This document shows positions 1-8,986 of a stretch of DNA of 45,258 bases, in pieces. The stretch is from the IMG/VR virus record IMGVR_UViG_2663763326_000013; one strand, given 5' to 3'. The translations under genes were made by a program, and so were the position numbers. Positions within the stretch are counted from its first letter, which is position 1, and every line of letters starts with the position of its first letter. The notes beneath the pieces were generated by a model that saw only the letters and a program-made list of their open reading frames with translations, was not told where the DNA came from and did not search any database. The DNA is from a virus (taxonomy: Duplodnaviria; Heunggongvirae; Uroviricota; Caudoviricetes).

Positions 1-435
1 ATGCATCTAGAAGTCTCTATTAATCCAGAAACTAGAGCTGAATTTTTTGATGAAGTTTTTCTCAAATTCCCGGAGCTAGAGTCTTCTATCATTGATGATT
101 TCAAGAGATACAAAGCAACCGGTGAGCTTCCGCATTATTTCGGTAGGGACGTTGCGTATACTCAGCCCTATGGTGCTTTTCGGGCTGGGTTGATGCATAT
201 CCATCTTTGTCTACCGCCAAACAAGTTTCCCGAGAAACTTCCACAACCGGATAGGGTCTGCAAGAAAGGTGATCCTGATAATGATGCTTGTCTTGTGTAT
301 GTCCAAGGTGAGCTTTATGAGAATAAATATTCACTCATTGCTATTATGTATCCCGATGCACATGAAAAAGCAAGAAAACATGATGTGATGAGCTATCTGG
401 CGCGAATTGCCCAGAATTATAAAGATGAAAACTAA
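1..435 (+). CDS. YafO-family type II toxin (ribosome-dependent mRNA interferase family)
   Basis: 144-aa ORF with motifs recalled from E. coli YafO (YK..G.LP..FGRD, HIHL, LVY.QG, LIAI..P..H). Begins at window edge so upstream context including any antitoxin is unseen. Confidence 0.55.
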   Translation: MHLEVSINPETRAEFFDEVFLKFPELESSIIDDFKRYKATGELPHYFGRDVAYTQPYGAFRAGLMHIHLCLPPNKFPEKLPQPDRVCKKGDPDNDACLVYVQGELYENKYSLIAIMYPDAHEKARKHDVMSYLARIAQNYKDEN

Positions 436-461: not shown

Positions 462-734
462 TTAGTTATTTATTTTCCTATTTGTTCTTACCCTCTCCCA
501 TTCAATTCTGCCTTCTTCACGCCGTTTATCTATATATTCAGCAAGATCCTGAATGTTGATGCAGCGCTTTGCTTTCTGTGATGTACCAACACGATAAGTC
601 GGGATCGGCAATTGGCATGCATTTGCTTTCGCTTCTGCTGTGTTAGGGCTCATACCGAAATACTTTTGGCATACAGCTGACAGCTCAATGTTTGGGGTAT
701 TGAATTCAGCCATCAGTAAAAACAAGGTGTTCAT
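462..734 (-). CDS. PrtN-family small DNA-binding protein (excisionase/activator-like)
   Basis: ORF 462-761 with motif FLLMAEFNTPNIEL...CQLPIPTYRVGTSQKA recalled as pyocin-activator PrtN family. Start set at third ATG (734) because GGAG lies 7 nt upstream. Confidence 0.45.
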   Translation of the reverse strand: MNTLFLLMAEFNTPNIELSAVCQKYFGMSPNTAEAKANACQLPIPTYRVGTSQKAKRCINIQDLAEYIDKRREEGRIEWERVRTNRKINN

Positions 735-3081: not shown

Positions 3082-3277
3082 GCTTCACCTCGATAGGCTT
3101 GATGGTATCGATCAGCAGTCGGCGGCGAGTATTTTCTGCAAAGTGGCGGCGTCCGGTTTCTTTGTGGTAAAACTCGTTTTTTCCGACGACCCACATCCGC
3201 TTTGTCTGGTGCAGTTTTTTTACCTGCGGACCGTCTCGGGTGATAACAATTCCTGTATGAGTTTTTATCACGCTCAT
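3074..3277 (-). CDS. hypothetical small basic protein
   Basis: 67-aa ORF in operon context. Confidence 0.35.
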   Translation of the reverse strand: MSVIKTHTGIVITRDGPQVKKLHQTKRMWVVGKNEFYHKETGRRHFAENTRRRLLIDTIKPIEVKHV

Positions 3278-5181: not shown

Positions 5182-5544
5182 TTAATGACCTGCTGCGCGG
5201 AGTTTTCCGTCAGGTTCACCGGCAAGAGTCAGTAATTGTCCCTGGTCTTCCTGCAGAATAGTCAGGCGACCACCGCGATTGACATACATCGGCGTTTCGG
5301 TGGTGTCTTCTTCAGAAATTTTCCCGCGGTTAGTCGGGCGAACATATGAGAGTTTGTGTTTGATTTTCACACGGTTCTCATCAAACGGTTCGATTTCCAG
5401 GTTGAGCGAGACCTTACCTTTGGTTTTCGTGTTCATCACACCGGAAGCGACTTCACTGAGAACAGCGCCGATTTTGGTTTCAAATACGCCGCCGTCCAGC
5501 TCCCCGATAAATGCCTGCACATCAGTACTGCGTTCGCTAGCCAT
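5182..5544 (-). CDS. YfdP-like early protein
   Basis: ORF 5182-5775; true start placed at ATG 5544 (MASERSTDV...) because GAGGAG lies 7 nt upstream and the upstream extension overlaps strong hairpins. Confidence 0.45.
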   Translation of the reverse strand: MASERSTDVQAFIGELDGGVFETKIGAVLSEVASGVMNTKTKGKVSLNLEIEPFDENRVKIKHKLSYVRPTNRGKISEEDTTETPMYVNRGGRLTILQEDQGQLLTLAGEPDGKLRAAGH

Positions 5545-5592
5545 TTTGCTGCTCCTCATCATATCGACCCTGCAAGGTCGGTTGGTTTCTCC

Positions 5593-5681
5593 ACAAAACA
5601 GAGAAGAACACCTGCGGTGGCAGCCGCCCGGATGGATTGGGTTATGAGCCCGTCGTCCGGTGATGCTCTTCTCTGTTTTGT
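5593..5681 (-). ncRNA. Large hairpin in early-left leader (15-bp perfect stem ACAAAACAGAGAAGA / TCTTCTCTGTTTTGT, 59-nt structured loop)
   Basis: Perfect 15-nt inverted repeat at 5593-5607 and 5667-5681 read directly from the sequence; sits about 50 nt upstream of the YfdP-like start. Confidence 0.4.
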
Positions 5682-5727
5682 AAAAAGAGCGGTACCAGCC
5701 GGAAGCAAGTGTACAAACTGGTACCGC
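5682..5727 (-). terminator. Intrinsic terminator within the leftward leader (tL-like)
   Basis: 10-bp perfect stem GCGGTACCAG / CTGGTACCGC (5689-5698, 5718-5727) with 19-nt loop; on the minus strand followed by UCUUUUUA. Confidence 0.45.
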
Positions 5728-6138
5728 CAAAGCAGTGGCTGTTGTGGTGGGGTTGTCACTCAGGCGTATGGTCAACCTGACAATCCGGTGTCCTCAACGG
5801 GGAAAGAGTAACCCCGCCATACTTACCGCCGCGCCATTTCGCGGATTACCACAACGCTGAGAGCACTTAGCCAGTTACGGCACCACACTTTGTCGCGGTT
5901 CCATAAATGCCCTCATCGTTGCACCCTGGTCTCTTCCCAGGCGTCAAACCGAATCGCCACGCTGGTTAGGCGTCTTATCAGCATCCTCATTGACTTGCAC
6001 ATTCCGGCTACCTGGTTTGTTTGCCCGAGCAAGGAGTGGATTGTCCCCTTTAACGTCCCCAGACCGCTAACGACGCATGTGCCATACGCCGTGTTACAAC
6101 CAAATTTTGTCAGGACCTTGTTTGTTGGTCTGGAAAGA

Positions 6139-6190
6139 AAGATAAAATGAAATTGCGTAACGTGCAAGTATTTTATTGCGAGACATGCAA
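6139..6190 (-). promoter_or_regulatory. Putative OL/pL: two TTGC-N7-GCAA operator repeats overlapping a sigma70-like promoter
   Basis: Operator-like 15-mers at 6153-6167 and 6176-6190 match a third copy in the cI-cro intergenic region. On the minus strand TTGCAC, 17-nt spacer, TATCTT. Confidence 0.4.
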
Positions 6191-6200
6191 TAGCGTGAGT

Positions 6201-6226
6201 AATGAAAAGCCACCTTCTGGTGGCTA
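6201..6226 (-). terminator. Rho-independent terminator downstream of repressor gene
   Basis: AGCCACC-ttct-GGTGGCT stem-loop; minus-strand reading gives a U-run (UUUUCAUU) after the stem; 20 nt downstream of the cI-like stop. Confidence 0.55.
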
Positions 6227-6246
6227 ATTGATGTTGAGGTAGGGGG

Positions 6247-6939
6247 TTAATTGTGTCGCTTAAGGGTTTGTGACTGACTGATTAAGACCTTTCCAAAGAC
6301 CATAAACCGGTGTTCGTTTTCGCTGGTAATTCCCCATTCGCGGTAAATCTGATTATCAGAAATTACCAGCAGTTTATCAGGTATCATTTGCAGTCGTTTG
6401 ACGTAAATTTTATCATCAAAACCAAATACATATATACCATCCCCATCAAACTGATTGATACTGATATCAACGAAGATGAGATCTCCTGGCTCAATGGTTG
6501 GACACATACTGTCCCCACGAACGTTGATAACTTTAATGTGATTTGCTGGTCGTCCACCAAACATCGATACAGCATTATCAGTTCTGTATTCAATGGCATG
6601 AATCACATCAATGACATCACCGCCCTGGATAAGGCCATTTCCCGCACTGGCACTGACATCCAGCATTTCAATACGGAATACATCCTTCACCTGCGCAACA
6701 TCCTCACTAATACTGTTTTTACATACAGTATTACTTTTGAGGTCTGAGGTAAAGAGATCAGCAATATCAACACCTAAGCTCCTGGCAATATTACTCAGGG
6801 CTTGTTCAGTGAATTGTTTCTGCTTACCTGTTTCGAGGCGCGAGATATTCGCCGCATCCACTCCTATTGCTTCAGCGAGATCGGCGATTTTCATGTTCTT
6901 CGCCTGGCGAAGTTGTCTGACTCGATTTCCTATGTTCAT
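6247..6939 (-). CDS. cI: CI-like prophage repressor (HTH_XRE N-terminal domain + S24 LexA-like autopeptidase domain)
   Basis: 230 aa; N-terminal HTH (IADLAEAIGVDAANISRLETG) and C-terminal S24 peptidase region with Ser-Lys dyad context (RGDSMCPTI ... VKRL); divergent from cro-like gene. Confidence 0.8.
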   Translation of the reverse strand: MNIGNRVRQLRQAKNMKIADLAEAIGVDAANISRLETGKQKQFTEQALSNIARSLGVDIADLFTSDLKSNTVCKNSISEDVAQVKDVFRIEMLDVSASAGNGLIQGGDVIDVIHAIEYRTDNAVSMFGGRPANHIKVINVRGDSMCPTIEPGDLIFVDISINQFDGDGIYVFGFDDKIYVKRLQMIPDKLLVISDNQIYREWGITSENEHRFMVFGKVLISQSQTLKRHN

Positions 6940-7036
6940 GCGTTTATTACATTTCTTTATTGCGCGTTAAGCAAATCAACTTGCGCAAAATATTTGCGTG
7001 AAATAATATGCTTATCACGCAATATGTGGAGGTTAT
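6940..7036. promoter_or_regulatory. Immunity-region operator/promoter region (OR, pR/pRM)
   Basis: Divergent intergenic region containing TTGC-N7-GCAA (6960-6974) and a 7-bp inverted repeat TGCGTGA-N13-TCACGCA (6996-7022); GGAGG SD before the cro-like start. Confidence 0.5.
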
Positions 7037-7297
7037 ATGCAATCACCATTACGGAATGTGCGTAAGGCGCACGGATTTACTTTGCAGCATGTTGCTGCGG
7101 GCGTTCAGGTCAATCCAGCGACGCTGAGTCGTATTGAAAGACTGGAACAAATTCCATCTATCGATCTTGCAGAACGTCTGGCCAATTTTTTTAAGGGTGA
7201 AATCAGCGAAATGCAGATTCTTTATCCGGCACGTTTTCAATCTAGCCAAAACCAGAATGGGTTTAAACCACAGGAACAGGAGGTAAGCCGTGGGTAA
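7037..7297 (+). CDS. cro: Cro-like HTH regulator
   Basis: 86 aa; HTH (FTLQHVAAGVQVNPATLSRIE); first gene rightward of operators; strong SD. Confidence 0.65.
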   Translation: MQSPLRNVRKAHGFTLQHVAAGVQVNPATLSRIERLEQIPSIDLAERLANFFKGEISEMQILYPARFQSSQNQNGFKPQEQEVSRG

Positions 7298-7841
7298 GCA
7301 TCATTGGAAAGTGGAAAAACAACCTGAGTGGTACGTGAAAGCTGTCAGAAAAACTATCGCGGCATTGCCAGGGGGTTACGCTGAAGCTGCTGACTGGCTG
7401 GATGTAACAGAGAACGCTTTATTCAACCGCCTTCGTGCAGATGGCGATCAGATTTTCCCGTTGGGATGGGCAATGGTTTTACAGCGCGCGGCTGGCACTC
7501 ACTACATTGCGGATGCTGTCGCACAGTCTGCTGGTGGGGTGTTCGTATCGCTTCCTGAAATTGAGGAAGTAGAGAACGCCGATATAAACCAGCGCCTGCT
7601 GGAAGTCATCGAACAGATCGGGAATTACTCAAAGCAGATTCGTTCGGCAATCGAAGATGGGGTCGTGGAGCCACACGAGCAGACAGCAATTAATGATGAG
7701 TTGTATCTGTCAATTTCGAAGCTCCAGGAGCATGCAGCACTGGTCTACAAAATCTTCTGCGCTCCAGAAAAGAGTGACGCCCGCGAGTGTGCAGCTCCGG
7801 GCGTCGTGGCGTTTTGTGTCTGTGGAGAAACTAACGCATGA
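7290..7841 (+). CDS. CII-like regulatory protein (phage CII/CP76-type; could alternatively be YdaT-like)
   Basis: 183 aa, GTG start with AGGAGG 5 nt upstream; position after cro; family assignment by recall only. Confidence 0.4.
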   Translation: MGKHHWKVEKQPEWYVKAVRKTIAALPGGYAEAADWLDVTENALFNRLRADGDQIFPLGWAMVLQRAAGTHYIADAVAQSAGGVFVSLPEIEEVENADINQRLLEVIEQIGNYSKQIRSAIEDGVVEPHEQTAINDELYLSISKLQEHAALVYKIFCAPEKSDARECAAPGVVAFCVCGETNA

Positions 7842-8986
7842 ACAGTTTAACGGCAAATAACCGTTTGTCGCAACAGCTGGTGGTCAGTGTCGCTGAACAC
7901 CTGTTGTTACGGCATGAATGCAGATTACCAAATCACTTGGCTGTAAGTAACCACAGAGAACTTTACCTGACTGTGGGGGGCGAGTTGTGCAGGAACTTAA
8001 CCGCTGGTTTCGTGACGGAAGAGGGCTTTATGTCCATGTTATTCGTTGGGAGCCAGAAACACAGCGCGTTATCTATCTTCGCAAAGACTACCCGCATGAG
8101 TGCTTTAGTCCTTTGTGGAAATTCAGGCGTGATTTTGTTGAGTGTGAAGGACCACCAGCACATTGATTCTGCCATTCCGGGACGTTACACTGTTCAGGCA
8201 CCTTATAAAGCGGGTGCCGGGATTGGCGTCCTGGAATTGCATACGGCGACAATTGGCGCGTTAGCGTCTTTTTTGTTGCTACAACTCAGCTATACCCAAA
8301 TTATGGTGGGCTGGGTGGGGGCACCGAAAGGTGCGCCGGTTTCCGTATGCGCCGGTTACGCCAACCCTGCTCAGTTCACCACCAGCGAAATTGGCGTTTC
8401 CGGTGGTGGAAGTTATCCATTGCATACGGAGGCTGCCATCATGGCTACGATCCCTGCCTTAGTTCAACCTGAACTTTGCATTATTGCAGACAAAGTTGTT
8501 ACTTCTTCTCTGGCTGTTGCTAGTTATTTCGGCAAACAACACAAAAATGTCATTCAAAAAATTGCGTCTCTTGAATGCTCTGCCGAATTTACTGAGCTGA
8601 ATTTCCAGCTCAGTGAGTACATCGACGCATCAGGCCGCAAACTACCTTGCTATCAAATAACCCGCGACGGCTTTGCGTTTCTTGCTATGGGTTTCACGGG
8701 TAAACGTGCTGCCCAGTTCAAAGAGGCATATATCAATGCCTTTAACCAGATGGAGAAACAGCTTTCAAAACCCTCTGTACCGAGCGACGTTGCACATAAC
8801 GCCAGCGTTCTCTATTCCTACATTTCATCAATTCATCAGGTCTGGCTGCAGCAGCTTTATCCTATGTTGGCAAAAGCCGAATCTCCGCTGGCTGTTAGCT
8901 TGTATGACTATATTAATGATGCTTCGGCACTGGCCTGCCTCATAAATTTGTCGCTGAACCCTTCAGAGGTAAGGGGGCGCAAATGA
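7838..8986 (+). CDS. Rha-family phage regulatory protein (Rha domain in C-terminal half; likely internal start at 8441)
   Basis: Frame open 7838-8986. Residues from 8441 (MATIPALVQPELCIIADKVV...GKQHKNVIQKI...ITRDGFAFLAMGFTGKRAAQFKEAYINAF) match the Rha signature, with GGAGG 9 nt upstream of 8441. N-terminal 200 codons of uncertain reality. Confidence 0.4.
   Translation: MNSLTANNRLSQQLVVSVAEHLLLRHECRLPNHLAVSNHRELYLTVGGELCRNLTAGFVTEEGFMSMLFVGSQKHSALSIFAKTTRMSALVLCGNSGVILLSVKDHQHIDSAIPGRYTVQAPYKAGAGIGVLELHTATIGALASFLLLQLSYTQIMVGWVGAPKGAPVSVCAGYANPAQFTTSEIGVSGGGSYPLHTEAAIMATIPALVQPELCIIADKVVTSSLAVASYFGKQHKNVIQKIASLECSAEFTELNFQLSEYIDASGRKLPCYQITRDGFAFLAMGFTGKRAAQFKEAYINAFNQMEKQLSKPSVPSDVAHNASVLYSYISSIHQVWLQQLYPMLAKAESPLAVSLYDYINDASALACLINLSLNPSEVRGRK

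Follow-up and report, generated by a model that had tools for sequence, protein, structure and literature searches.

What a lambdoid prophage without an N-like protein carries between its leftward promoter and its first early-left gene, and whether that interval is anything other than spacer, is the question raised by IMG/VR record IMGVR_UViG_2663763326_000013, a stretch of 45,258 nucleotides (nt) that is referred to hereafter as the window. The window represents a lambdoid prophage of Escherichia coli that belongs to the SfV/mEp460/cdtI type and, in the stretch that was queried, matches the E. coli R11 chromosome at 100% identity. Its early-left leader runs on the minus strand (6131-5545) between the bidirectional terminator of the repressor gene and yfdP (Table 1). 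An earlier reading of this DNA (the original prediction) had described the leader as hairpin-rich, with an internal intrinsic terminator and without credible open reading frames (ORFs) or an N-like gene, had suggested that it might act as a put-like antitermination RNA, as a prophage small RNA (sRNA) or as a leader-based switch, and had proposed an Rfam search and a covariation analysis across homologues. As detailed below, the leader is not spacer, but four conserved structured-RNA modules in series, with a core that represents a variant of the known DicF locus. It is also a mosaic of modules shared with unrelated phages, in which a 15-base pair (bp) stem closes a conserved domain of its own, two aspects that the original prediction had missed.

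The relationship with DicF is established by homology both at the terminator and upstream of it. The segment here designated module C is 89% identical (E = 2e-42) to a segment of the Qin prophage of E. coli K-12 (positions 2752-2874 of locus L010), where it stops 8 nt before dicF, and in phage Evi a DicF RNA is detected by Rfam (76 bits) within 10 nt after module C. In the window, the position of DicF is taken by GCUUUGGCGGUACCAGUUUGUACACUUGCUUCCGGCUGGUACCGCUCUUUUU, which retains the UUGGCGGUAYCAGUUU segment and the design of a hairpin followed by a U-tract, and which aligns with the 3' half of DicF as UUGGCGGUAcCAGUUU...CCGC-U-tract. This hairpin is the perfect 10-bp stem that the original prediction had singled out, with 19 nt between its arms and UCUUUUUA following on the minus strand. 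Among the three functions that had been suggested, that of a prophage sRNA is hence backed by the homology of the hairpin, and of the ~125 nt before it, to the corresponding DicF locus in the dicBF operon of Qin. Both prophages place the RNA in an untranslated portion of a PL-type operon under repressor control, and both share the ~125-nt 5' domain, the GGCGG...CCGC hairpin with its U-tract and the flanking long helices, which in K-12 are RNase III sites. The two loci differ in their surroundings, since the window has module B and a link helix ahead of this core, where K-12 has ydfABC, and module D and yfdP behind it, where K-12 has the dicB spacer.

The window hairpin, with a predicted energy of -19.1 kcal/mol, conforms to an intrinsic terminator in being G+C-rich and immediately followed by a U-run; a consensus terminator scan missed it because its 19-nt loop exceeds the limit of 8 nt set in the scan. 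At least 15 alleles of the hairpin were identified, all of which fold at -14 to -33 kcal/mol, maintain their stems through compensatory changes and are followed by T-runs. Such a hairpin and T-run were located within ~20-110 nt past module C in all inspected tails, except for one degenerate copy in Shigella flexneri, and the internal intrinsic terminator of the original prediction can hence be identified as an allele of the DicF hairpin. No alternative pairing of the terminator/antiterminator type, as might be anticipated for a leader-based switch, was found in the window allele. The longer alleles of Erwinia (L146), Izhakiella (L147), Serratia (L136), Trabulsiella (L144) and locus L053 contain an AGGAG sequence followed after 8-10 nt by ATG or GTG, opening a frame that begins with a common MF(Y/C)R motif, extends across the 3' arm and the U-tract, and could exert a translation-coupled control of the terminator. 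These alleles would be the natural ground for leader-peptide attenuation, in which ribosomes translating a short ORF that begins in the hairpin would melt the terminator. The window loop, however, has neither a Shine-Dalgarno sequence nor an ATG, holding only a TTG-initiated frame of 24 codons, and the length and frame of the peptide are not conserved among the long alleles; of all the explanations considered here, we regard this one as the least probable.

For 35 years, work on DicF has treated it as a 53-nt RNA. The conservation of module C suggests that the little-noticed 5' domain of the long form folds into a pseudoknotted RNA and is conserved to a higher degree than DicF itself. The five helices of module C are paired in 94.6% of the cells of an alignment of 37 distinct sequences, and 11 of its pairs show double changes, a number that drops to 2.7 in column shuffles (0/500) and to 0-5 with slid partners. 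Support for the P3 pseudoknot (GUAUGG with CCAUAC) comes from one double change and two wobbles, and the scant change at this helix is due to the search pattern, which fixed those columns. Module C was found 125 times in IMG/VR and 16 times in GTDB (one genome per species), with carriers in Escherichia, Shigella, Citrobacter, Serratia symbiotica, Trabulsiella, Erwinia tracheiphila and Izhakiella. In Rac-like phages it is situated between a DicA-type repressor gene and kil, and in P1 it comes right after the C1-controlled Pban, overlapping the "dicF-like region" of the record and followed by a strong terminator. In K-12, DicF has been reported as a 190-nt species, with a 5' end generated by RNase III, and as a 53-nt species generated by RNase E, with 3' ends that arise by intrinsic termination or by RNase III, the latter giving 72 nt (bioRxiv 10.1101/2023.04.14.536235; PMC5069750). 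By length arithmetic, the 190-nt species corresponds to module C plus DicF. Its RNase III-dependent 5' end falls within the 3' strand of the predicted link helix, and the 72-nt 3' end within the 5' strand of the predicted closing stem (>25 bp) of the next domain; the counterparts of these two flanking stems in the window are the link domain and module D.

Conserved structured domains are also present on either side of this DicF-type core. Upstream of it, module B is recognized by an invariant core (GGUAGCCGGAAUGUGCAAG, 6012-5994) and has homologues of 78-83% identity in the trnI-ban spacer of P1, in phiV10, SPN1S and a Klebsiella phage, and in mEp390. It is situated between trnI and ban in both P1 and P7 and downstream of the repressor in mEp390, and its epsilon15-like carriers comprise phiV10, SPN1S, O157 typing phage 9 and the Klebsiella phage. 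Its four helices are paired in 97.6% of cells, double changes affect 52 cells, as opposed to 16 in shuffles (0/500), and the covariation score is 0.357, compared with at most 0.097 with slid partners. A long-range GCACAU/AUGUGC pairing put forward by RNAalifold was dropped in favor of the local helix H1, which shows 8 double changes at one pair, and a pseudoknot between the H1 loop and the core, both sides of which are invariant, is possible. In P1 (L005, ~3190-3215), module B is followed, directly before the ribosome-binding site of ban, by AUUUUCUGGUGAUGAC, which is near-identical to the DicF 5' seed, UUUCUGGUGACG. Downstream of the terminator, the perfect 15-bp repeat reported in the original prediction (5593-5607 with 5667-5681) is indeed present and can be extended to 25-nt arms at 84% identity; it forms the end of the closing stem of module D, a long hairpin with a predicted energy of -45.5 kcal/mol that is conserved in SfII, SfV, ST64B, and loci of Citrobacter, Erwinia, Izhakiella and Serratia. 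Module D is paired in 93.3% of cells, and 6 pairs (13 cells) are changed on both sides, against 2.8 (5.2 cells) in shuffles. The covariation analysis therefore yielded compensatory changes in support of modules B, C and D and of the hairpin alleles. The window sequence on its own is predicted to adopt the folds of modules B, C and D, the link domain that separates B from C has a predicted fold of -31.2 kcal/mol, and the whole 606-nt leader folds at -238 kcal/mol, compared with -207 +/- 8 for shuffled sequences (z = -3.7).

Comparison by BLAST with phage and E. coli collections revealed a mosaic structure of the leader, whose break points lie at 6110, 5855, 5733 and 5729. The immunity-specific part stops at ~6110, and the pieces of the leader reappear in unrelated phages, without exception oriented along the direction of transcription. 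Such mosaicism, together with the contradictory hypothetical ORFs annotated on both strands, could be taken to indicate a non-functional spacer composed of recombination linkers or decayed remnants, in which hairpins are incidental. This explanation, already disfavored, is made very improbable by the compensatory base changes observed in every module, by blocks of 14-19 nt that do not vary between Escherichia, Klebsiella, Salmonella, Erwinia and Serratia, and by the constant orientation of the pieces with respect to transcription in every context. The modules have no counterpart in Rfam 15 (4227 families), where the search proposed in the original prediction returned only two chance matches for the leader region (5300-6400) at E <= 10. 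At gathering thresholds, the complete window yielded no match relevant to the leader, and 20 related array loci (144 kb) yielded tRNAs and a single unrelated sRNA as their only matches. No second copy of any leader module was detected elsewhere in the window, and a literature text search with the module sequences found no paper printing their conserved blocks.

To survey the arrangement of these modules, the invariant core of module B was used as a probe in IMG/VR, yielding 112 unique contexts in 35 clusters. The common order in these arrays is module B, a long "unit" helix, a cargo, an optional small hairpin, a DicF-type hairpin with U-tract and a long-stem domain. The unit helix, in which CAACGAUGAGRGCAUU pairs with AGUGCUCUCAGCGUUG, closes a variable insert, and the cargo is enclosed by GUUGUGG/CCACAAC; a helix of the type seen in the window link domain likewise encloses variable inserts in other arrays. 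Between the link helix and the stem of module D there is sequence similarity, and the two may be regarded as paralogous elements of punctuation. In 25 contexts the cargo is a bona fide tRNA-Arg(UCU); in 21, including the window, it is module C, and in others a third domain. This third domain also starts right after the K-12 dicF terminator: the dicF-dicB spacer of K-12 (L010, 2936-3110) consists of one large predicted domain (-62.9 kcal/mol, closing stem >25 bp), and its start, UGUGGUGAAUGCGGCUGAGCGC, is homologous to the third cargo domain of many phage arrays. Immediately 5' of module C, the window segment 5875-5856 (CUGG-CUAA-GUGCUCU) resembles the 3' arm of module D (5681-5657 region compared), and could pair with the 5' arm of module D in a long-range stem that would enclose module C and the hairpin until transcription reaches the true 3' arm; on inspection of the sequences, a similar pairing potential is seen in Erwinia.

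The slots of tRNA-Arg and module C are preceded by the same link-helix 3' strand (AGUGCUCUCAGCGUU), followed by the same hairpin types and bounded by common edges (CGUUGUGGCAWU on the 5' side and GCCAC...AAUCACG on the 3' side), so that module C can be said to occupy a tRNA slot across sister arrays. It may be argued from this equivalence, from the acceptor-stem register of helix P1 in module C and from the recurrence of T-arm-like GGUUCGAUUCC motifs in array inserts that the array was originally a tRNA/sRNA cassette, and that module C is a tRNA-derived or tRNA-mimicking processing signal or decoy (for RNase P or RNase E, modification enzymes or anticodon nucleases), and not part of an sRNA. 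ARAGORN, however, finds no tRNA in the window and the Rfam tRNA model none in module C, which has five helices and a pseudoknot, and no cloverleaf. Furthermore, the 5' end of the K-12 long form requires RNase III, not RNase P (bioRxiv 10.1101/2023.04.14.536235). On balance, a tRNA-related role of this kind seems improbable.

The non-coding nature of the leader is supported by several lines of evidence. The original prediction had found no credible minus-strand ORF, the longest candidates being peptides of 8-29 amino acids (aa). This upper bound does not hold, since mechanical minus-strand ORFs of 66 aa (5559-5759) and 84 aa (5913-6167) exist if GTG and TTG starts are permitted, and the plus strand likewise holds mechanical ORFs. 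In substance, nonetheless, the claim is right, because homologues at 80-85% identity break all of these ORFs by frameshifting indels of 1, 2 or 4 nt, substitutions are flat across codon positions (9, 13 and 12, and 8, 14 and 11, for first, second and third positions), a Pfam search of the leader ORFs returned no match, and nothing is called in the interval by the Prokaryotic Genome Annotation Pipeline (PGAP) in the identical E. coli genome. The third-position excess of the yfdP control (9, 10 and 36) confirms that yfdP is coding. Hidden protein genes on either strand of the leader were ruled out on the basis of the frameshifts, the flat codon-position pattern and the absence of Pfam matches. 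Hypothetical proteins annotated inside the RNA modules, on either strand, in mEp460 (L001; mEp460_036 and _037), phiSTEC1575-Stx2k (L003; phiSTEC1575Stx2k_14-16) and phiV10 (L006; PhiV10p04, opposite tRNA-Arg and the DicF-type hairpin) are probably spurious. In agreement with the original prediction, no N-like gene was found: the first gene of the operon is yfdP, followed leftward by yfdQ, yfdR and others down to a gene for a PrtN-family protein, and no N family was detected in the annotation or by the Pfam search among early-left ORFs. The literature likewise reports no N-like protein for SfII, SfV and SfIV (PMC3851460).

Table 1. Features of the early-left leader and of its surroundings, in positions of the window.
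Feature	Positions	Strand	Details
yfdP	5182..5544	minus	start codon 5544-5542; first protein-coding gene of early-left operon
yfdP-proximal segment	5545..5592	minus	conserved GGAGAAAC tract; small hairpin 5580-5565; Shine-Dalgarno GAGGAG 5557-5552
Module D	5593..5681	minus	20-bp closing stem 5681-5662/5612-5593 round three-way junction; predicted RNase III site
DicF-like hairpin and U-tract	5681..5727	minus	arms 5727-5718/5698-5689; 19-nt loop; UCUUUUUA 5688-5681
Module C (5' domain of DicF long form)	5733..5855	minus	homology and covariation
Module C helices		minus	P1 5855-5848/5748-5741; P2 5844-5840/5833-5829; P3 (pseudoknot) 5822-5817/5771-5766; P4 5816-5812/5802-5798; P5 5785-5778/5758-5751
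Link domain	5852..5921	minus	CAACGAUGAGGGCA (5921-5908) pairs with UGCUCUCAGCGUUG (5865-5852), closing small hairpin; predicted RNase III site
Module B core	5922..6092	minus	homology and covariation; 5' extension to 6105 common to P1
Module B helices		minus	H1 6091-6084/6078-6071; H2 6067-6060/6014-6007; H4 5973-5970/5962-5959; H5 5941-5937/5929-5925
Putative PL and two operator-like repeats	6139..6190	minus	sequence reading; layout shared with L156
Bidirectional terminator-like hairpin	6208..6225	.	between repressor gene and PL
S24-type repressor gene	6247-6939	minus	
Cro gene	7037-7297		
CII/YmfL-like protein gene	7290-7841		

The leader appears to be under repressor control. The OL-like operators announced in the original prediction correspond to TTGCG-N5-YGCAA repeats at 6153-6167 and 6176-6190, a motif found again in the OR region (6958-7024), and the repeat families D1 and D6 connect both sets of sites. 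A weak PL promoter can be inferred at these repeats, with a putative -35 element (TTGCAC, 6167-6162), a 17-nt spacer, a putative -10 element (TATCTT, 6144-6139) and a start near 6131; a consensus promoter scan of the window did not call it, and the same layout of -35, -10 and operators is seen in locus L156, which has the same operator type.

In the reading that we favor, to which we assign a probability of about 0.58, the leader is a polycistronic non-coding precursor in which the hairpin serves both as the terminator of a DicF-like RNA and as an attenuator of the operon, and the long stems act as RNase III sites. Transcription from the repressor-controlled PL would proceed through module B, the link helix and module C into the diverged DicF-type hairpin and its U-tract, where a fraction of polymerases would stop at ~5681. 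This stop would set the 3' end of the DicF-like RNA and attenuate yfdP and the rest of the early-left operon, with read-through transcripts extending across module D to yfdP. Probable RNase III substrates are the link helix and the stem of module D; cleavage at both would release an RNA comprising module C and the hairpin, with an expected size of roughly 175-180 nt. The cut in module D would, in addition, provide the yfdP messenger RNA with a new 5' end just upstream of the GGAGAAAC tract, the small hairpin and the ribosome-binding site. Both termination at the hairpin and cleavage at the closing stems are here transferred, by homology, from experiments in K-12.

Several observations weigh against this reading. 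The window allele departs from DicF (RF00039) in the deletion of the 5' seed UUUCUGGUGACG, which pairs with xylR (PMC5069750), and in a stem that is perfect over 10 bp around an unrelated 19-nt loop, and the Rfam DicF model gives no match in the window either at its gathering threshold or at E <= 10. With the seed absent and the loop different, the allele is only a candidate trans-acting sRNA, and its targets, if any, would be different ones; a crude test of duplex energy with ftsZ did not set even true DicF apart from shuffles, and the window allele likewise fell within the shuffled range. The hairpin could thus be only a terminator, and not a trans-acting sRNA. Cleavage by RNase III in the window is carried over from a paralogous stem, and the link helix contains two mismatches. 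The modules are, moreover, separable and exchanged independently, as seen in mEp460 (L001) and phiSTEC1575-Stx2k (L003), which have modules B and D at ~90-100% identity to the window and lack module C (window 5735-5860); conversely, Evi has module C without module B. Lastly, the favored reading does not account for the stronger conservation of modules B and C relative to the sRNA part, nor for the way in which enough polymerase passes the terminator in a phage devoid of N.

This last point is directly addressed by a second explanation, in which the RNA of module B and/or module C binds RNA polymerase in cis and brings about read-through of the DicF-type and later terminators, replacing N in the manner of put. 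It is consistent with the coexistence of an intrinsic terminator ahead of all early-left genes and the lack of an N-like gene, and with the location of module B, which begins ~39 nt past the putative PL start in the window. Across the window, L156 and L240, the distance from a PL-type promoter to the module B that follows it is ~10-40 nt, a placement like that of putL in HK022 (PMC9378689). The position of module C in P1, between Pban and a strong terminator, fits such a role, as do the invariant single-stranded or junction sequences and the pseudoknot of modules B and C, which are more conserved than any sRNA seed. The leader also has in common with HK022 putL and putR that a structured RNA lies near the start of the PL transcript of an N-less lambdoid phage, with terminators downstream. 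Nevertheless, put elements are ~70 nt long and have two stems, whereas the window modules span 120-170 nt and 4-5 helices, and comparison of putL and the HK022 PR region with the window returned only matches of 8-11 nt, at chance frequency, with no copy downstream of PR. Membership in the put family, as implied by one of the suggestions of the original prediction, hence fails. Further points against antitermination are that the K-12 DicF terminator works behind module C, the 53-nt species being present and longer species undetected (bioRxiv 10.1101/2023.04.14.536235), that module B lies 2.3 kb from the promoter in P1 and between structural genes in epsilon15-like phages, and that Evi lacks module B and mEp460 module C. 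Antitermination that is put-like in function alone is less probable than the favored reading, but more probable than the other rivals considered here. An equally tentative proposal is that the leader represents an undescribed family of large, modular, RNase III-punctuated RNA arrays of temperate enterobacterial phages, of which DicF would be the best-known tail, with the promoter-proximal module B and/or the pseudoknotted module C acting as new protein-independent antiterminators in cis.

Other systems offer partial parallels. The likeness to the lambda PL leader (nutL, N and tL1), which the original prediction had drawn, holds only for map position, to which a long hairpin before the first gene, possibly an RNase III site as in the lambda N leader, can be added. 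The window leader differs from that of lambda in lacking an N-like protein, boxB and a true boxA (no match to boxA was found in the leader within 4 mismatches), and in placing its terminator before the first gene, whereas that of lambda comes after it. A GCTCTTT sequence in the window terminator tail was considered as a boxA candidate and dropped (P about 0.05 by shuffling). As in ribosomal RNA (rRNA) and tRNA operons, or in the T4 tRNA cluster, which includes stable RNAs of unknown role, long untranslated polycistronic RNAs are folded and split by long helices, and sister arrays hold a real tRNA. The modules of the window are, by contrast, phage-borne and associated with no rRNA, and a true rrn/lambda boxA occurs in only one of the 112 arrays (L214), where a perfect rrn-type boxA (UGCUCUUUAACAA) lies 129 nt after the module B core with a small hairpin ahead of it, as in rRNA leaders. 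A literature search for large phage non-coding RNAs near tRNAs in Enterobacteria turned up only work on GOLLD and ROOL, described as large multi-domain structured prophage RNAs that often lie beside or enclose tRNA genes (PMC12286853). The leader arrays differ from these in the absence of an Rfam match, in their Enterobacterales hosts and in a modular, shuffled architecture, as opposed to a single conserved fold.

Elsewhere in the window, Rfam identifies adjoining isrK (61 bits) and C4 antisense (81 bits) RNAs at 8198-8386 on the plus strand, within the first half of ORF 7838-8986 (382 aa), annotated by PGAP as a Rha-family protein. The ORF is probably over-extended, since its recognizable Rha part begins only beyond the isrK/C4 pair, and the locus looks like an RNA-controlled antirepressor unit of the P1 immI or Gifsy-1 isrK type; mEp460 carries the same pair. 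The PrtN-family gene (1-435, plus strand) that ends the early-left operon is followed on the opposite strand by a YafO-family toxin gene (462-734, minus strand), and this end of the prophage adjoins zur/dinF in E. coli R11, with no integrase seen at that end.

The DicF-type core of the leader is a known locus, but the domains that surround it, their spread across very different temperate phages and the equivalence of the tRNA and module C slots appear to be undescribed. Modules B and D constitute RNA domains without an Rfam entry that are shared with P1 and epsilon15-like phages and that 4741 of 5426 complete E. coli genomes carry wholly or in part. If the tentative proposal of antiterminator arrays were true, it would explain how N-less lambdoid phages and the ban operon of P1 transcribe through built-in terminators. 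More generally, the modules of the leader are candidates for the control of early-left transcription in N-less lambdoid phages of the SfV/cdtI/Stx2c type, as well as for the role of the long form of DicF.

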